Source of the DNA: a virus
Lineage: Duplodnaviria; Caudoviricetes
DNA length: 56,444 nucleotides
Direction: 5' to 3' (one strand)
IMG/VR virus record: IMGVR_UViG_3300019360_000010
Coordinates: 1-56,444 of that record
In this document: piece by piece, positions 1 to 56,444 of the stretch
Layout of the letters: each line of letters opens with the position of its first letter
Position numbering within the stretch: the first letter of the stretch is position 1
Notes under the pieces: model-generated
What the model was told of the DNA's origin: nothing
What the model saw: only the letters and a program-made list of their open reading frames with translations
The model's database searches: none
Program-made: the position numbers and the translations under genes

Positions 1-351
1 GGCGCCCGCGAGGTTGGCGCCCGCGAGGTAGGCGCCCGCGAGGTAGGCGTTCGCGAGGTAGGCGTTCGCGAGGTAGGCGCGCGCGAGGTCGGCATGCGTG
101 AGGTTGGCGTTCGCGAGGTTGGCGTTCGCGAGGTAGGCGTTCGCGAGGTAGGCGTTCGCGAGGTAGGCGTTCGCTTTGATCGCGAGCTTCACCGCCGCGC
201 CCAGGCGCAGCTCATCGGTAGAAAGCCCCGCATCAACTTCCGCGCTGAACAGCACGGCGTGGGTGTAGCAATGCTTGATCTGAACTTGCATCGGTCCCTC
301 CTTTTTCACGCCCCTAAGCTCGCCGCGATCGGTCTTGGACGTCGTAGTCAT
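1..351 (-). CDS. Pentapeptide-repeat protein, N-terminal part (continues across the contig junction into 56444-55540)
   Basis: Reverse strand reads MTTTSKTDRGELRGVKKEGPMQVQIKHCYTHAVLFSAEV...KLAIKANAYLANAYL...; in-frame ATGs at 351 (SD GAAGGGAG) and 291 (SD AAGGAGG); open at the window edge. Confidence 0.85.
   Translation of the reverse strand, partial: MTTTSKTDRGELRGVKKEGPMQVQIKHCYTHAVLFSAEVDAGLSTDELRLGAAVKLAIKANAYLANAYLANAYLANANLANANLTHADLARAYLANAYLANAYLAGAYLAGANLAGA
129..191. repeat. 63-bp end overlap identical to 56382-56444 (circular or terminally redundant contig)
   Basis: Direct comparison; the match includes unique non-repeat sequence TTTGATCGCGAGCTTCA. Confidence 0.85.
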
Positions 352-359
352 CTGAGTTC

Positions 360-451
360 TCCCTTCGTGATATCGGAGGAACCACCTCGGCCCTCCTGAC
401 TCCTCGAGCCCGAGACCGGCTGCCGCCGATCGTCGGGCTCGAGGGAACGCG
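360..451 (-). repeat. 92-bp structured intergenic element, copy 1 (identical to 55439-55530)
   Basis: Exact direct repeat; two hairpins joined by AGTCA, followed by ACGAAGGGA. Confidence 0.9.
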
Positions 452-1180: not shown

Positions 1181-1229
1181 TCGGTTCTCCCTTCGTGACG
1201 GTCCGGCCGGCGTCCGACCGGACATACTT

Positions 1230-1258
1230 AATATACCCGAGGGAAATCCGCCGGTAAA
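1230..1258 (-). promoter_or_regulatory. Sigma70-type early promoter
   Basis: Minus strand TTTACC-17 bp-TATATT in an AT-rich gap, followed by a hairpin at 1201-1223. Confidence 0.65.
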
Positions 1259-2104: not shown

Positions 2105-4078
2105 TCACTTACACTCGCCCCAGTGCGCACCGCGCTCCGCCTCGGCGATGATCGGTACGCGCAACGTGATCGCGGTCTCCATCAGTCGCTTTACCTCCTT
2201 CGCCGCCGCGTCGCCGGCCATCGTCTTCGGCACTGACCAGTCCAGCTCGTCGTGGACGGTGAGGAGCGGTGCGCCCAGTATACCGCAGCAGCCCGCGTCC
2301 CAGATATCCACCATCGCCTTCTTCATCAGGTCGGCCGACCCGAGCTGGAACAGGCGGTTCATCGCCGTGTACGTGTGAGCCCGAACCAGCACCTCCCCTG
2401 GGTACTCCTTTTCGGCGCGACCGCGTGGCAGGGCCGGCACGCGATCTTTCATCTTCTTCCGGCCGTTCGAGGCCGGTTCCCACAGGGGGAAGCGGGCGAA
2501 CCGGCCGAGCACGGTCTTGATGTATCCGCGCTCGGCCGCGCGGCGCTGAGCGAGGTCGAAGGTCTCCTTCGTCCAGGGGCAGGCGGCTTCGTATTCCTTT
2601 ACGAACGCCTCGGCCTCCGTGATCGAGCAGCCGAAGGTGACCGCGAGCTTCGGTGCCATCGCGCCATACTTCTTGGCGAAGTTGGTGTTCTTCACCTTCT
2701 TCCGCTTGATTTTGTCCTCAGGATCGACGTGCAGCAGCTCCGCGATGAACTTGTGATAGTCCGTCTTCGGATCGTTGACGTACTTCAGGCGGAACTCGCG
2801 CGCGCCGCGTCCGACCGCGTAGTGCGCTTCGAACCTCACCTCGATCTGGGAGTAGTCGTCGCGTTCCCACTCTTCATCTTCCTCGGGGATGAAAAGACTT
2901 CTGACGAGAGGACCCAGCCGCTCGTCCCTGGCCGGTATGTTCTGAAGGTTGGGGTTAGAGCTAGAGAACCTTCCGATCGTTCCACCATCGTCGGACTTGA
3001 GCTGGTGAAACTCGGTGTGGATGCGTCCGTTGACGTTGTGCTCAAATATGTAGGTATCAACGAAGGTCTCCTTGCACTTGTCGAGGGAGCGCGCGTCGAG
3101 CAGCAACTTCAGCACCGGAAACCGCGATGCCATCTCCTTCAACCACTCTTTCTTGATCGACCACTTGCGCGTCTTCTCGGTCATCGGAACCGGGATGTCC
3201 ATCGCGGCGAGCGCCGCGCCGAACGAGTCGGGCGCGAACAGCTCGGCCTTCGGGCAGGCGGTCAGCCGTCGGAACTCGGCGTGAAGCGCGTCGCGCTCGG
3301 CGCCGAGTTCGGACGACACCTCCTCCGCGCGGCGCAGATCCACGCGGACGCCGCGCCGGCGCATCGCGAGAAGGATCGGGATCAGGCGCGACTCGAGATC
3401 GAACAGTTCCATCAGCTGCTGCTCGTGCAGCGCGGTCTCTTGCCGTTCGAGGACGCGCAGGGGTAGGTCCGCGTCACCCTCGCCGTACGCGCCCACGAGC
3501 TTGGCCGGCAGCCGCCATAGGTTCGTCTTTACCGCCTTATTCGTGGTGCCGAAGCCCCAGGCGATCGCCGCCGCCTTCAACAGGTCCTCGCGCTTCGACT
3601 CGCCGAGCCAGGTCCGCGCGAGCGCGTCGAGGTTGTACTCGAGCCGGTGTTCGTCCAGCAGCGGCTCGGCGACCTGAACGTCGCGGAACCGGCGTGCGTT
3701 CTTGAAGTGGATACCGACCTCCGCCATGAAGTCGAGGTCGTACAGCAGCCCGGCACCGACTACCTCACCGGAGAACTTCGCGGCCTCGGCCGTCAGCCAG
3801 CGCTCGACCATCCGGGCGTCGAGGTTCCCGCCGCCCTCGTGGCGAACCGGGTAGTACGCGCGCCGGCCGTCATCGGTGCCGATCGCGTACCCCACGATGA
3901 ACGCGCCGCGCCGAACGCCTGGCCCGAGAACGTCCAGTCCGACGTCCTTGGTCTCTACGTCGATCGCGAGACGTTTCACACCCTCGAGGTTCATGAAACC
4001 GCTCGGCGGTTTCCAGTCGCTCTCCGGTTGGAACAGCGGCAGTTGGGTCCGATCGGTCGGCTTCAACGTGCGGGTCAC
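2105..4078 (-). CDS. polA: Family A DNA polymerase with 3'-5' exonuclease domain
   Basis: Exo DVET/YDLDF/YGEGD; GRFSSSNPNLQNIP; motif A DYSQIEVR; motif B KNTNFAKKYG; motif C VHDE. Confidence 0.97.
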   Translation of the reverse strand: MTRTLKPTDRTQLPLFQPESDWKPPSGFMNLEGVKRLAIDVETKDVGLDVLGPGVRRGAFIVGYAIGTDDGRRAYYPVRHEGGGNLDARMVERWLTAEAAKFSGEVVGAGLLYDLDFMAEVGIHFKNARRFRDVQVAEPLLDEHRLEYNLDALARTWLGESKREDLLKAAAIAWGFGTTNKAVKTNLWRLPAKLVGAYGEGDADLPLRVLERQETALHEQQLMELFDLESRLIPILLAMRRRGVRVDLRRAEEVSSELGAERDALHAEFRRLTACPKAELFAPDSFGAALAAMDIPVPMTEKTRKWSIKKEWLKEMASRFPVLKLLLDARSLDKCKETFVDTYIFEHNVNGRIHTEFHQLKSDDGGTIGRFSSSNPNLQNIPARDERLGPLVRSLFIPEEDEEWERDDYSQIEVRFEAHYAVGRGAREFRLKYVNDPKTDYHKFIAELLHVDPEDKIKRKKVKNTNFAKKYGAMAPKLAVTFGCSITEAEAFVKEYEAACPWTKETFDLAQRRAAERGYIKTVLGRFARFPLWEPASNGRKKMKDRVPALPRGRAEKEYPGEVLVRAHTYTAMNRLFQLGSADLMKKAMVDIWDAGCCGILGAPLLTVHDELDWSVPKTMAGDAAAKEVKRLMETAITLRVPIIAEAERGAHWGECK

Positions 4079-23277: not shown

Positions 23278-23399
23278 GTGCGTTCTTCTCGTTCTGTCGA
23301 TCGACGATGAAGCAGTTCAAACTGCTTCATCGTCGATCCGTGTGGCCTCAGATCAGACGAGCGTACGGGAACGACCGTCCGTGACCGACCCGACCCGAA

Positions 23400-24000
23400 T
23401 ACCGAAACGTATTTCAAAATAACAGTGGTTTTATTTTGAACCGTTCTGGTTTATCTTAGCGGTTCCGGCTCGCAAGAGTGCGGGGAGCGAACGAAGTAGT
23501 CGGCCGAGGCGCAGATCTCGGTCGATTACTTGTCTCTACAGTTAGAATGGATAAGGTTGAACTTTCGTAAACAACCCGGAACGAATTGAAGGTAAGTACC
23601 GGGAATATTGGATAAAATCAGCCAATCACCAGGCAATTTTTTGCCAAATAGAACGAAATCAACGGGTTAGGACCCGAAAAAATTGCCTGTTAACCTTCAG
23701 GCAATTAGCGTTGATTTTGTTCGATAAACCGCCTCTTCAACCTTAAATAATCGTTTGATATCAATACCCGTCTTTTCTTCTGATTAGACGCGGGGAGTTT
23801 TTTTTTCGAAAAAATTTTTCAAAAATAAATCAGCCAATCAGCCAATCAGCCAATATTCGACCGGGATCAAGTCCCTGATATCACGGCGAATATTGAATAA
23901 TTGCCTGAGTCCTTGCCTGAAAACTTCAGCCAATTCGCTCGGTAAGTATATGATATGACAGGGGATTAATCCCCACGCGTAATTTTTATGAACGTAGGAG
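23400..24000. other. AT-rich non-coding switch region with iterons; candidate replication origin and divergent promoters
   Basis: About 10 CAG(C/G)CAAT-type copies, A/T tracts, no ORFs, located at the strand switch. Confidence 0.6.
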
Positions 24001-50000: not shown

Positions 50001-51284
50001 ATGCCAAAGATTATCCGATCCATCATCACCCTGTATTTTATCCTCGTTACCTCGCTCGCGTTAACCGGTTTTTCGGTGAACGCCGCCACGCTGCTGCCGC
50101 CGGGCAAGCAGCAGTTCTTTGACGTCAACGGCAACTCGCTCAGTTCGGGCTCGATCACGTTCTACGTTCCGAACACGACTACGCTGAAGAACACGTGGCA
50201 GAACGCGAACCAAACTATCCTGAACACTAACCCGGTCGTACTGGACGCGGGCGGCTTCGCGGTCATCTACGGTTCGGGTCAGTACCGGATGATCGTGCGC
50301 GACTCGTCCGGCAACTTGATCTATGATCAGCTCACCAGTTCGACGGCCGAGGTATCGGTCGACAACATCGTCTACTACGCCACGTCGGTAGGCGGTGCCG
50401 CGAACGCGATCACGGTCTCGGCCGTCTCGCCGACCGATTACACGCTGACGCTGGGCAAGACGCTGCGGTTCATCTCACCGTTGTCCAACACCGGCTCGAC
50501 CGTGCTAAATCCGCTCGCGCTCGGCGTCGTCACGATCAAGCGCGTCACGAACATCGGCACCGTCAACCTCGCGGGCGGCGAGATCGTCGCGGGCGGCGTG
50601 TATGACGTGCTGTACGACGGCACGAACTACATCCTCCTGAACCCGTCCGTCACCGACAACCCCTGTGACCTGAAGCCGTTCGCCGGTTCGACGGCACCGA
50701 ACGGATACGCGCTGACGTTTGGCCAGGCGATCAGCCGCACCACCTTTTCTTCCGTGTTCGCCTGTGCCGGCGTCGCGTGGGGACCGGGGAACGGTTCGAC
50801 TACCTTCAACTTACCGGACCTACGCGGCCGCTCGGTCTTCGGCAAGGACGACATGGGCGGTTCGGCCGCGAACCGGATCACGGCTGGCGTGAGCGGGATC
50901 ACGGGCACGACGATCGGCGCGGCCGGCGGTAACCAGAACGTCCAGCAGCACAACCACGTCGTCAACGTCACGGACCCGGGGCATACCCACACGGTCACGG
51001 ACCCGGGGCATACCCACACGATCGCTCACACGCACGGGTTCAACGCGCTCCTCACGCTATCGGGGATAACCGGTGCGCCGGGCGCGTTCGGCACGTATCC
51101 GGACGGCGCAGCGCCTAGTACGACGGGGGGAACGAGCACGCCGAACAGCGGCAGCAGCACGACGGGGATCACCGCTGCGAACTCGAACACGACGGGGATC
51201 ACCGCGACCACGAACAACTTCGGCACGGGAACCGCCGGGAACGTGCCGCCGGCCGCGATCGTGAACTGGCTGATCCGTCTGTGA
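50001..51284 (+). CDS. Tail fibre: signal peptide, head-binding-type N-domain and tail-collar domain
   Basis: MPKIIRSIITLYFILVTSLALTGFSVNA|ATLLPPGKQQFFD.NG...NPVVLD..G; FAG..AP.GY...GQA.SR..F, GNGSTTFNLPDLRGR, H.H repeats. Confidence 0.85.
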   Translation: MPKIIRSIITLYFILVTSLALTGFSVNAATLLPPGKQQFFDVNGNSLSSGSITFYVPNTTTLKNTWQNANQTILNTNPVVLDAGGFAVIYGSGQYRMIVRDSSGNLIYDQLTSSTAEVSVDNIVYYATSVGGAANAITVSAVSPTDYTLTLGKTLRFISPLSNTGSTVLNPLALGVVTIKRVTNIGTVNLAGGEIVAGGVYDVLYDGTNYILLNPSVTDNPCDLKPFAGSTAPNGYALTFGQAISRTTFSSVFACAGVAWGPGNGSTTFNLPDLRGRSVFGKDDMGGSAANRITAGVSGITGTTIGAAGGNQNVQQHNHVVNVTDPGHTHTVTDPGHTHTIAHTHGFNALLTLSGITGAPGAFGTYPDGAAPSTTGGTSTPNSGSSTTGITAANSNTTGITATTNNFGTGTAGNVPPAAIVNWLIRL

Positions 51285-52964: not shown

Positions 52965-53175
52965 CATCACCTCGCGCACGCAGGGTCTCGTCGTGGACGG
53001 CTGCCCGCGCATCAAAGAATACACCGCCGAGCAGAACACGGCCGTCGCCACCGAACTGGAGATGCTGCCGCGCGACGCGATGACCCGGCGGTACATCGCC
53101 GACTATGGCGGACTGCGATCGCAGGTCCGCGCCTGCCGTGACACCGGACGCCCCGAAGGAGCACCGTCGTCGTGA
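52852..53175 (+). CDS. Putative o-spanin lipoprotein (Rz1-like)
   Basis: LLLTTWLTG|C lipobox; CP....Y...Q...A.EL...DY..LR.Q.RAC; start uncertain (52852 or 52909). Confidence 0.65.
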   Translation: MSKILRLRTGRRTRCWARPLTVLLLTTWLTGCGTISFDITSRTQGLVVDGCPRIKEYTAEQNTAVATELEMLPRDAMTRRYIADYGGLRSQVRACRDTGRPEGAPSS

Positions 53176-53567
53176 ACGTCCTCGTCGCCGCCGTCCTCGC
53201 CGCCCTTCTTCTCCCCTGGTCCGCCCAGGGGACGGTCCGTGACCCGTGCTGGGAACGCCCGGCCCTCGACCCGCGCTGCGAGCGCCCGGGCGGCGGGGGA
53301 GGTGAGGCCGAGGGACCGGGTAGAGGCGCGGACCCGGGGTCGGCCGGTATCGGGTCCGGGAGTGACCAAGGGTCATCCTCCGGGGTCGGGAACGGACCGG
53401 GAACGGGCGGCTCCCCGGGGACCGGTGGCGGAGCGCCCGGAGGTTCGCCCGGAGGTGGCTCTTCGGGCGGCGGTATGTCCGGGCCGGGGCCAGGCGGCGG
53501 GTCACCTGGAGGCGGCTCTCCGGGCGGCGGCGGGCACGGTCACGGCGGGTCCGGCGGCAAGCACTAG
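53172..53567 (+). CDS. Gly-rich protein with signal peptide
   Basis: MNVLVAAVLAALLLPWSAQG|, Cys pair, then G/P/S repeats. Confidence 0.6.
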   Translation: MNVLVAAVLAALLLPWSAQGTVRDPCWERPALDPRCERPGGGGGEAEGPGRGADPGSAGIGSGSDQGSSSGVGNGPGTGGSPGTGGGAPGGSPGGGSSGGGMSGPGPGGGSPGGGSPGGGGHGHGGSGGKH

Positions 53568-53656
53568 GTTCGACCCGCGCCGGTCCGGTCGGCCGGTCTT
53601 GATGGAGCTCACGGGAGGTAGCGTCCGGCGTTCTAAGTCTCTCCCTAGCGAAGACT

Positions 53657-53692
53657 AAAGAGCCCGGCGACGCGCGTCACCGGGCTCTTTTT
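53657..53692. terminator. Bidirectional intrinsic terminator between the converging arms
   Basis: AAAGAGCCCGG...CCGGGCTCTTTTT. Confidence 0.8.
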
Positions 53693-53711
53693 GTCGGCGC
53701 GTCGATCGACG

Positions 53712-53807
53712 CTAGGTGAAGATGTAGATCAACATCACCGTGGTCAGTGCGGCGCTGAGGCTAGCGACTGCGCCGAAGAAGATCGTGATCGTCTGAAGGA
53801 ACGTCAT
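53712..53807 (-). CDS. 31-aa hydrophobic peptide (absent from ORF track)
   Basis: MTFLQTITIFFGAVASLSAALTTVMLIYIFT; ACGAAGGGAGAAC SD. Confidence 0.65.
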   Translation of the reverse strand: MTFLQTITIFFGAVASLSAALTTVMLIYIFT

Positions 53808-53838
53808 GCTCGGTTCTCCCTTCGTGTGATGAGGTTGA

Positions 53839-54210
53839 TCAGTTGGCGAGATAGGTGTCGTTGACTTTCCGGACCTGCTTGTTCTTGATGAGCTGCGCCA
53901 GCAACGCGTACAGCTGGCCCGTGCGATAGTCCGGCAGTTTCTTTTGGATCGCCGCGAACGTCAGCGGCGTCCGGATCGTCGTGAGGACCTTGTCGACGAA
54001 CTCGGTTCTCTTCAACCCGCGCAGGACCGGTCCGAGCGCCCTCTTTCCCTTGCTGGTCTTGCGCGTCGCGTCCTTCTGGATGATCGTCGCCAGTTCAGCC
54101 GGAAGGTGCTTGTAGCGGGCCCGGCCCATCACGTCGACGGTCACGATGAGGTAGTCGCCGGTAGCGAGCGTCAGCGGCTGTTCGATCTTCACGATCAACG
54201 CGTCGGTCAT
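53839..54210 (-). CDS. Early protein with C-terminal winged-helix-like domain
   Basis: ACGAAGGGAGAAC SD; PLTF..I...L......LY..L..L.....V....Y. Confidence 0.65.
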   Translation of the reverse strand: MTDALIVKIEQPLTLATGDYLIVTVDVMGRARYKHLPAELATIIQKDATRKTSKGKRALGPVLRGLKRTEFVDKVLTTIRTPLTFAAIQKKLPDYRTGQLYALLAQLIKNKQVRKVNDTYLAN

Positions 54211-54217
54211 AGTCGTT

Positions 54218-54299
54218 CTCCCTTCGTAACGGAGGGCCGGCCGGCCCTCCTGACTCCTCAAGCCCGTCCCCGGTTTCATCCGAGGTACGGGCTTGAGGG
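54218..54299 (-). ncRNA. Divergent third copy of the two-hairpin leader element
   Basis: Same architecture as 360-451 with compensatory substitutions. Confidence 0.65.
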
Positions 54300-54311
54300 T
54301 CCTTGAGCCGG

Positions 54312-55430
54312 TTATGCGGCCAGCAGGTCGCCGGCCTTACGCTCGAGCTGAACGCGGTCGTTGTTGTTCGGGACCGACCGCGCATACGCGGTGATCCCGG
54401 TGATCGCGTCCCAGCGCGTCTCGATCGGCCGTCCCTCGTCCGCGACGTGCGCGGCCTGGATCGCCACCGACTCCTTCTTCGTGAACCGGTTCGCGAGGAA
54501 CTCGTCGATGTCGTCGATCTTCGCCTTGCGCTGAGCCTCGATCGCGTCGATCACTGGCTTCTCCGATGCCGCCGCGTACTCGATGAGGACCGGCTCCACC
54601 TCCTCCAGCCAACGCGACGGAGCGCCGGAGGTGTGCCGGATGCGGACCTCGCGGAAGTGTTCGACGTTCCACACGATCCGGTTGCAGCACGTGTAGTCGA
54701 ACAGGAAGAACGACGCGCCGAGCGTGCTCGCGCCGACCTCCGAGTTCCAGACGAAGAAGCCGCGCGCGAACGTCCCCATCATCTGCGCGCGCCGGTTCGG
54801 CAGTTCGATCCGGTTCTTCTCGTCGGCGAGGAACACGAACATGTCTCGATCGGACGCGAACAACGTGGTGTTCGCGCTCGTGACCGTCACGTCCTTGCCG
54901 AACTCGCCGGGCACCTTCCAGTCGCCCGTCACGCCGTCGCCGAAACGATCGACCATCGCGTCTACGAGGTCGGCGTCCCAGATGCGGCCGTAGTTCGGTC
55001 CGGTCGCGGCGCGTAGCTCGTTGTTGTCGAGCTTGGTCAGGAGCACGCCGACCTCCTCGACCGACCGGTTGAACCTCAGACCGTAGTTGAGGCAGTCGGC
55101 CGCGATCGGCGCGGGGAGCGACCGGAGGTAGCCGCCGGGAGCGCCGGCGAGGTTCGCGATCTGACCGAACGAGTGGTGCGTGGTGACGAACGGCACGCCG
55201 TTCGGTCCGAACACCTCCAGTCCGGCGCGGAGGTCCGACGTGGCCGGCGCGAACGACAGCTTGCGGTTCGCCACGATCTTTGCGGAGGACGCTTCACGCA
55301 TCTTCTTCTTGAACGCCTGGAGGTCGGTCAGCGACGTAAAGCGCTGATCGGCCGGGCGGCTCATCCACTGCCGCGACGCCTCGTGCAGGTTGCGGGTCGG
55401 AGCGGCCGGCCGGTTCATGGACATCGTCAT
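54312..55430 (-). CDS. DUF932-like protein
   Basis: LRA.T...YGRI, SDRDMFVF, GF...NSEVG, C.N. Confidence 0.8.
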   Translation of the reverse strand: MTMSMNRPAAPTRNLHEASRQWMSRPADQRFTSLTDLQAFKKKMREASSAKIVANRKLSFAPATSDLRAGLEVFGPNGVPFVTTHHSFGQIANLAGAPGGYLRSLPAPIAADCLNYGLRFNRSVEEVGVLLTKLDNNELRAATGPNYGRIWDADLVDAMVDRFGDGVTGDWKVPGEFGKDVTVTSANTTLFASDRDMFVFLADEKNRIELPNRRAQMMGTFARGFFVWNSEVGASTLGASFFLFDYTCCNRIVWNVEHFREVRIRHTSGAPSRWLEEVEPVLIEYAAASEKPVIDAIEAQRKAKIDDIDEFLANRFTKKESVAIQAAHVADEGRPIETRWDAITGITAYARSVPNNNDRVQLERKAGDLLAA

Positions 55431-55438
55431 CGTAAGTA

Positions 55439-55530
55439 TCCCTTCGTGATATCGGAGGAACCACCTCGGCCCTCCTGACTCCTCGAGCCCGAGACCGGCT
55501 GCCGCCGATCGTCGGGCTCGAGGGAACGCG
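55439..55530 (-). repeat. 92-bp structured intergenic element, copy 2
   Basis: Identical to 360-451. Confidence 0.9.
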
Positions 55531-55539
55531 TATCAAGTT

Positions 55540-56444
55540 CTACTTGATATCGGTTGCGTATTTGCGGCCCTTGAGCCACGCCAGCGTCTCGGCGTTGCCG
55601 GCGTAGAACATCTTCGTTGCCACGGGGGCGCAGATCATGCCGGCGACGTTCGGCGACAGCGCGCGGATTTTCGGGTCCGTCGCGCAGACCTGGAGCCAGC
55701 CGGCGAGGCAATGCGAGGTTCCGCACACCGCTTCCTCGGCGCAACTGCGGCCCTCCCAGGAACCATCTTCGTGCCAGTAGTCCATCTCCAGCCGCTTTTC
55801 ATCGTCCAGGATGATCTCACGCACCCTGTCGAGATTGGCGACAGCCTGCTCGGGCGTGACCGGCAGGATGTCGAAGTTGGCGCGCGCGAGGTTGGCGCCC
55901 GCGAGGTTAGCGTGCGCGAGGTTGGCGCGCGCGAGGTTGGCGCCCGTGAGGTCGGCGTGCGTGAGGTTGGCGCGCGCGAGGTTGGCGCCCGTGAGGTCGG
56001 CATGCGTGAGGTTGGCGCGCGCGAGGTTGGCGCCCGTGAGGTCGGCGTGCGTGAGGTTGGCGCGCGCGAGGTAGGCGTTCGCGAGGTAGGCGTTCGCGAG
56101 GTTAGCGCCCGTGAGGTCGGCGCGCGCGAGGTCGGCATGCGTGAGGTTGGCGTTCGTGAGGTTGGCGTTCGCGAGGTTGGCGTTCGCGAGGTTGGCGTTC
56201 GCGAGGTAGGCGTTCGCGAGGTTGGCGCCCGCGAGGTTGGCGCCCGCGAGGTTAGCGCCCGCGAGGTAGGCGCCCGCGAGGTTGGCGCCCGCGAGGTTGG
56301 CGCCCGCGAGGTTGGCGCCCGCGAGGTTGGCGCCCGCGAGGTTGGCGCCCGCGAGGTAGGCGCCCGCGAGGTAGGCGCCCACGAGGTAGGCGTTCGCGAG
56401 GTAGGCGTTCGCGAGGTAGGCGTTCGCTTTGATCGCGAGCTTCA
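55540..56444 (-). CDS. Pentapeptide-repeat protein, repeat tract plus C-terminal CGT.HC.AGW domain
   Basis: A(N/Y/D)L(A/T)(G/N/H/R) repeats, then LEMDYWH...CGTSHCLAGW. Confidence 0.88.
   Translation of the reverse strand, partial: KLAIKANAYLANAYLANAYLVGAYLAGAYLAGANLAGANLAGANLAGANLAGANLAGAYLAGANLAGANLAGANLANAYLANANLANANLANANLTNANLTHADLARADLTGANLANAYLANAYLARANLTHADLTGANLARANLTHADLTGANLARANLTHADLTGANLARANLAHANLAGANLARANFDILPVTPEQAVANLDRVREIILDDEKRLEMDYWHEDGSWEGRSCAEEAVCGTSHCLAGWLQVCATDPKIRALSPNVAGMICAPVATKMFYAGNAETLAWLKGRKYATDIK

Follow-up and report, generated by a model that had tools for sequence, protein, structure and literature searches.

What keeps a pair of hairpins in three successive gaps between genes of a phage genome, and do these hairpins act in the transcript, as a site for a protein, or not at all? 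The question arises on the minus strand of a 56,444-bp IMG/VR viral contig, the whole of which is referred to here as the window. An initial annotation had proposed three copies of a covarying two-hairpin RNA motif in early-gene leaders, with a structure under selection.

A gene string with three repeated leaders

The contig is recorded as linear and estimated to be 83% complete. Its last 63 nt (56382-56444) are identical to positions 129-191, an exact overlap that places both contig ends in one pentapeptide-repeat gene, composed of about 28 tandem 15-nt units. The recorded linear molecule probably closes on itself in this gene, at a point where the assembly is broken or ambiguous within the repeat. 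The minus strand carries a replication block (SNF2 helicase, AEP primase, C5 methylase and family A polymerase, from GC3 frame analysis and Pfam), and a string of small genes comes after it. Because the contig closes inside the pentapeptide-repeat gene, the three copies of the two-hairpin arrangement, here called A, B and B′, fill three consecutive gaps of this one string, and B and B′ flank a single gene. The string comprises, in order:

1258-1230, minus strand: promoter-like site, TTTACC-17-TATATT
1184-1258, minus strand: leader of the 59-aa gene, with the promoter-like site, a 10-bp hairpin (1223-1201), a Shine-Dalgarno (SD) block (1196-1184) and the ATG at 1180
ATG at 1180, minus strand: 59-aa gene
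Following the 59-aa gene, minus strand: gene of about 80 aa
748-803, minus strand: leader of the 96-aa gene, with an unrelated 12-bp hairpin (803-775), an SD core and the ATG at 750
ATG at 750, minus strand: 96-aa gene
360-451, minus strand: copy B
1-351, minus strand: pentapeptide-repeat gene, N-terminal part (ATG at 349-351), joined through the 63-nt overlap
55540-56444, minus strand: pentapeptide-repeat gene, C-terminal part (PF00805, E 2.3e-53)
55439-55530, minus strand: copy B′
54312-55430, minus strand: 372-aa gene, between B′ and A (phrog_1362, unknown function)
54218-54299, minus strand: copy A
53839-54210, minus strand: 123-aa gene, downstream of copy A, with no family
53805-53825, minus strand: leader of the 31-aa ORF, with an SD block and no hairpin
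Following the 123-aa gene, minus strand: 31-aa ORF
53657-53690, minus strand: terminator-like hairpin closing the string, with a GC-rich stem (95% complementary), the tail UUUAGUCUU and an A-run upstream

The string probably runs from the sigma-70-like promoter near 1258-1230 to the terminator-like hairpin at 53690-53657, which has a U-rich tail and was not flagged by the terminator scan. A simple scan, which can miss non-consensus promoters, finds 0 promoter-like (sigma-70-like) sites in 53000-56444; in 1-1800 the only such sites are 955-928 and 1258-1230, both outside copy B. From the lack of promoter-like sites within 53000-56444 we infer a single transcript across the copies, and a promoter only at the head of the string fits read-through transcription. 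The hairpin at 1223-1201 is unrelated to those of the three copies and lies a few nucleotides past the predicted -10, just before the SD block.

The three copies share a common layout, which consists of a first hairpin (HP1), an AGUCA linker, a second hairpin (HP2), 3-6 nt, the SD block ACGAAGGGAGAAC, 4-5 nt and an ATG. In all three, the copy starts 7-20 nt past a stop codon and ends at the SD block and ATG of the next gene. HP1 has a 12-bp outer stem, a 1-nt bulge, an inner stem of 6-7 bp and a loop of 4-6 nt, and HP2 has the form GGAGGGCC…CCUCC (GGAGG…CCUCC). The parts of each copy are as follows:

54256-54298, minus strand: copy A, HP1 (12 bp, 1-nt bulge A, 6 bp, 6-nt loop; folded; alignment columns 5-47)
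54251-54255, minus strand: copy A, linker AGUCA (0 of 5 columns differ between A and B)
54231-54250, minus strand: copy A, HP2 (perfect 8-bp palindrome, 4-nt loop, 100% complementary)
54208-54227, minus strand: copy A, SD block ACGAAGGGAGAAC, 4-nt spacer and ATG of the 123-aa gene
360-451, minus strand: copy B, unit of 92 nt that begins 7 nt upstream of HP1 and reaches the SD core (121.8 bits with the covariance model described below)
402-444, minus strand: copy B, HP1
397-401, minus strand: copy B, linker
375-396, minus strand: copy B, HP2
356-368, minus strand: copy B, SD block
55439-55530, minus strand: copy B′, 92-nt unit identical to B (121.4 bits)
55481-55523, minus strand: copy B′, HP1
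55476-55480, minus strand: copy B′, linker
55454-55475, minus strand: copy B′, HP2
55435-55447, minus strand: copy B′, SD block, ending …GGGAUAC
55428-55430, minus strand: ATG of the 372-aa gene downstream of copy B′

The 5′ arm of HP2 in copy A is SD-like and its 3′ arm anti-SD-like; in B and B′ this hairpin has 8 bp, interrupted by a bulge and including a G·U pair. B and B′ form a perfect 92-nt direct repeat with sharp borders, so the three copies provide only two independent versions and the second B-type copy adds no covariation. The three minus-strand copies are thus present where the initial annotation placed them, at 54218-54299, 360-451 and 55439-55530, and its AGUCA linker is invariant. 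The second hairpin that it described occurs in every copy, as a perfect palindrome in A and in a less regular, bulged form in B. Its suggestion of a free-standing ncRNA is unlikely, since every copy ends 3-6 nt before an SD block and ATG. The label ‘early-gene’ was not established: the flanking proteins are without known function, so neither ‘early’ nor ‘anti-defence’ can be asserted. For the 372-aa protein, the homolog in Synechococcus virus S-ESS1 carries the annotation DUF932, a label that Pfam leaves unconfirmed, with no match at E <= 0.001. We conclude that the copies are a structure-conserving, three-copy intercistronic leader of a familiar general kind.

Base pairing, sequence invariance and the Shine-Dalgarno block

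The fold z-scores of the three leaders are -5.9, -3.7 and -4.5, and 0, 1 and 0 of 200 shuffles, respectively, fold as well. HP1 folds in 3 of 3 copies, and both hairpins have a near-zero unpaired probability in the ensemble. A covariance model made from the three copies gives them 104-122 bits in an unfiltered search of the whole 56-kb window, the remainder of which scores <=15 bits except for the copies' own reverse strands. These reverse strands reach 25-29 bits and acquire non-canonical pairs. One U·G pair is conserved in both versions and corresponds to a C·A mismatch on the opposite strand. Together with the poorer reverse-strand scores, this pair favours the sense strand.

The model contains 24 pairs, and 72 of its 72 cells hold standard pairs. 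Between A and B, both partners are replaced in 4 of the 18 HP1 pairs (G-C to A-U, A-U to U-A, G-C to C-G and A-U to C-G), and all double changes are located in HP1. Only 5 of 500 shuffles reach the observed pair counts, and every slid control collapses. Counted by position, 8 of the 36 paired positions of HP1 differ, which make up exactly 4 complete pairs that are still complementary; the chance of such an outcome for 8 changed stem positions is 1e-4 from counting alone. Differences are also found at 5 of 7 unpaired HP1 positions, 5 of 10 inner or loop positions of HP2 and 4 of 6 spacer positions, and at none of the 5 linker or 13 SD-block positions. Overall, the cores of A and B diverge by 22%, and as far as the sequences indicate the differences sit where a structured RNA would tolerate change. 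This pattern is most simply read as selection for the pairing of HP1, on the evidence of two paralogs from a single genome; hairpin-templated repair can also give a palindrome compensatory-looking changes without selection. The initial annotation's covariation stands as four compensated HP1 pairs in a fully paired model and is reduced from three covarying copies to two versions. Its proposal that structure is under selection is supported for the pairing of HP1, to the extent that two paralogs of a single genome can speak for it.

Hairpin-templated repair also figures in the reading of the copies as a repeat without dedicated function, be it a recently duplicated junction, a recombination scar or a selfish palindrome kept by such repair. 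The 100% identity of B and B′ over 92 nt with sharp borders, the lack of homologs found elsewhere and the presence of long unrelated hairpins in other gaps all agree with a repeat of this kind. Against it, every modelled cell is paired despite the core divergence, with linker and SD block spared, no Y1 transposase is encoded, and the copies lie strictly in phase with stop and start codons; we consider this reading unlikely. For an origin from IS200/IS605 or REP/RAYT elements, the Y1 (HUH) transposase family PF01797 has 0 matches in the contig, which may be incomplete, and control genomes do match. An integron attC-like site was rejected because the core sites typical of such elements are not evident on reading.

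About 24 nt, from the 3′ arm of HP1 through the linker to the 5′ arm of HP2, are invariant between A and B save for one compensated position. A pure stability role does not explain why the linker and the HP2 5′ arm are strictly invariant, which hints at sequence-specific recognition or at conversion. The module could accordingly be a sequence-specific protein-binding site, either an RNA operator, whose GGAG-rich linker and HP2 would be the target of a translational regulator or an endonuclease, or a DNA site of the type proposed for mycobacteriophage ESAS. This would account for an invariance that exceeds what pairing alone needs, and there are partial precedents: DNA-binding proteins are favoured by the ESAS authors in the account drawn on here (PMC3203893), and GGAG in early mRNAs is described as cut by T4 RegB (PMC1702504). 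We regard such a site as improbable, however, because the interior of HP1 has been replaced and yet is complementary and the half-site changes are symmetric, which argues for pairing and not for a dimeric DNA binder. In addition, G·U pairs leave the DNA palindrome imperfect, and no candidate regulator was identified.

The SD block has a wider distribution than the hairpins. The 9-mer ACGAAGGGA occurs 6 times, against 0.53 expected, always on the minus strand and directly before the start codons at 351, 750, 1180, 53807, 54210 and 55430. Weaker versions (‘…GGAGAAC’, 3-5 nt, start codon) precede many other genes of the phage, so ACGAAGGGA is its preferred Shine-Dalgarno context. The initial annotation had counted ACGAAGGGA as part of the motif; since three neighbouring genes have this block as well, what sets the three copies apart is HP1, the linker and HP2 alone. 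Different single hairpins precede the block in the leaders at 750 and 1180, and none does in the leader at 53807. An SD-insulating role of the hairpins was set aside, the mean unpaired probability of the SD being variable and unremarkable across the six leaders (0.31-0.76). A conserved upstream ORF was likewise rejected: copy B contains a GTG after the SD-like GGAGG, and copy A is without a start codon there.

Search for relatives and other repeats of the contig

Rfam 15 gives 0 matches to the whole window at gathering thresholds, and a search of 53600-55700 at E<=10 returns only sub-threshold generic hairpins, the best of which scores 23.6 bits against a gathering score of 88. The exact 14-nt invariant core is present in 62 IMG/VR stretches, with the motif context in 0 of 62. 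The motif is present in 0 of the 25 loci with relatives of the 372-aa protein (6 viral, 19 metagenome; 32-60% identical), where ordinary hairpins are found in its place. The 123-aa and 96-aa proteins have no relatives that we could find. The nearest relative of the polymerase is 53% identical in IMG/VR (20 viral loci) and 42% identical in GenBank phages. With locus L095 left out of these searches, the covariance model reaches at best 19.4 bits over 45 related loci (416,571 bases), in a match without HP2. The 14-mer of the SD block occurs in 113 IMG/VR stretches, and the model applied to 80 of the 113 (691,214 bases) reaches at best 20.9 bits.

Searching genome contigs for the linker-HP2-SD pattern yields 1 AT-rich chance match, and blastn of copies A and B against GenBank phages and of copy B against plasmids gives nothing meaningful (E >= 0.02). 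Two candidates were rejected: locus L194, which has a similar layout, is unrelated by tblastx and represents a generic stop-hairpin-RBS arrangement, and matches to the HP1 outer stem are one sequence on two loci inside an 897-aa ORF, that is, a coding palindrome. As Rfam, IMG/VR, the related metagenome loci and the phages and plasmids of GenBank yielded no homolog, cross-genome covariation is unavailable and the case rests on two paralogs. The covariance-model search that the initial annotation had called for thus returns no further homologs in the collections covered, which as far as they reach is the outcome that it had set against its own proposal.

Hairpins and repeats of other kinds are present in the contig. 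An unrelated hairpin at 9464-9507 has 20-nt arms (95% complementary) and a 4-nt loop, is followed by GUUUGGAG and an ATG preceded by an SD, and sits between a 225-aa gene and an 870-aa methylase gene of the same strand block. Considered beside the three copies, it makes long intercistronic hairpins look like a habit of the minus-strand block. A perfect 19-bp inverted repeat with a 2-nt spacer (23299-23338) lies just upstream of the SNF2-helicase start (23277). It adjoins an AT-rich, palindrome-rich segment (23800-23908) in the divergent region between the gene blocks, which is a candidate site for an operator or an origin. At 50968-51018, towards the end of the plus-strand block, the 24-nt unit TCACGGACCCGGGGCATACCCACA forms a tandem repeat with a period of 27 nt.

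Loci of 372-aa homologs on other contigs have leaders and repeats of their own. On unrelated contigs (L077, L081, L083 and L087), the homolog often has 1-3 short hairpins upstream, and a ‘CCACAAAC’-like stretch recurs between the first of these and the SD. In L080, a bulged hairpin comes before a GGGAGC…GCUCCC hairpin and an SD, a two-hairpin leader that is analogous, not homologous. In a 64.6-kb viral contig (L085/L073), repeated GGTTCGAATCC motifs are located downstream of the homolog, and their sequence suggests a tRNA gene cluster directly after it. L090 contains a long tandem array of a 9-nt unit (CCTGGAGGC-type) at about 3600-3800, directly after the terminator of the homolog gene.

Possible roles of the leader and comparison with known systems

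Our preferred reading, which we hold tentatively and at slightly less than even confidence, is a repeated intercistronic leader in which HP1 serves in processing or stability, HP2 is a 5′ hairpin and the repeat is a recombination patch. The accessory-gene string would be read as one polycistronic mRNA. HP1, a bulged helix of 18-19 bp just past the upstream stop codon, would be kept by selection as an mRNA processing or stability signal; since its length and bulge fit an endonuclease substrate or an exonuclease barrier, we propose that it may be cut by an RNase III-type double-strand-specific endonuclease or may block 3′ exonucleases. No RNase III domain is encoded in the contig. HP2 would then remain to protect the newly made 5′ end, at or close to which it would lie, 3-6 nt upstream of the SD block. 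The leader at 1180, with its hairpin between the -10 and the SD, makes a 5′ hairpin followed by an SD look like a local design. The 92-nt direct repeat of B and B′ may act as a homology patch for the gain and loss of genes, and its identity around one gene, as read from the sequence, appears to mark a recent duplication or conversion.

HP1 could instead be a partial, U-tract-poor terminator or attenuator that reduces transcription from one cistron to the next, comparable to the stem-loop of the PeSL (promoter-early stem-loop) cassettes of T4-type phages. Its position directly past the stop codon and its very stable, GC-rich stem would suit this role, and PeSL stem-loops, which precede an SD and ATG, are described as terminating or attenuating (PMC2839356). 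With one U in eight in its tail, HP1 lacks the U-tract that a canonical terminator would have; the scan of 53000-56444 flagged 0 terminator-like sites, and the hairpin at the end of the string does have a U-rich tail. A series of three attenuators without a promoter-like site in between would also starve the distal genes, and we therefore find this role doubtful.

A more specific version of the recognition idea, to which we assign a low probability, is that HP1-AGUCA-HP2 is a recognition module for a sequence-specific factor that gates or cuts every cistron boundary, such as a phage or host endoribonuclease or a translational gate on the invariant GGAG-rich linker, with the 92-nt unit also acting as a DNA patch for the exchange of cassettes, the pentapeptide-repeat gene for example. 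The leader would then be an RNA-structured, promoter-less counterpart of the PeSL in a high-GC phage lineage without cultured relatives. Phage HK022 put sites are cis-acting two-hairpin antitermination RNAs, and a put-like processive antitermination role, by analogy with two adjacent sense-strand stem-loops in multiple copies with compensatory changes, is very unlikely here because the copies lie at successive gene boundaries, locked to the RBS and not promoter-proximal, and because there is no Rfam match and no terminator to override is evident inside the string.

Should the hairpins direct processing or stabilization, as in the preferred reading, the string would be a compact case of a phage insulating accessory genes in one transcript, beyond T7 and T4, and a regulatory leader could double as a recombination junction for gene cassettes. 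The present weight of this case is that of a three-copy element in a single metagenomic contig.

The hairpins of T7 RNase III sites span about two turns of the helix, with an irregularity in it. The corresponding feature here, in place of a ~20-bp hairpin between cistrons, is the 18-19 bp of HP1 with its bulge, between a stop codon and the next SD. In T7 early mRNA, RNase III is described as cutting at five intercistronic sites (PMC4858673). The likeness extends to hairpins between the cistrons of a phage operon, repeated at successive boundaries, and, in the T7 account cited, to hairpins left at mRNA ends (PMC4858673). The two differ in that there is no sequence similarity, the leader described here adds a second hairpin and an invariant linker, and its cleavage is a prediction.

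T4-type PeSLs are presented in the cited accounts as repeated intergenic modules of ~100 bp with a stem-loop and with an SD and start codon at the end; small accessory genes lie between them, and where such direct repeats enclose a single gene they form a recombination patch by which genes are gained and lost (PMC2839356; PMC4122927). The leader described here also consists of a stem-loop with an SD and start codon at its 3′ end, and a 92-nt perfect repeat surrounds one gene, in what is so far a single genome. Unlike the PeSLs, which contain a strong sigma-70-like early promoter, it is a module in which no sigma-70-like promoter was found, its stem-loop is without terminator features, and it is present in three copies only.

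The SAS of cluster K mycobacteriophages is a conserved SD block of ~13 nt at the starts of a subset of non-structural genes, in one orientation (PMC3203893). About half of these sites are reported with an inverted repeat just upstream, the ESAS (PMC3203893; PMC12699233), and the more recent of these sources treats the function of both as still open (PMC12699233). In this contig, 6 SD-block sites, all on the minus strand at gene starts, include 3 with HP1 and HP2, which is an analogy of layout and not homology. The block ACGAAGGGAGAAC differs from the 13-bp SAS consensus as published (PMC3203893), resembles the general RBS of this phage and belongs to another phage lineage. For the ESAS, departures in the arms do not support RNA pairing in the description cited (PMC3203893), whereas 4 of the 4 changed pairs described here are compensatory. 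These compensatory arm changes would make the present leader a cleaner case than the ESAS for an RNA-level role of ‘extended start-associated’ repeats.
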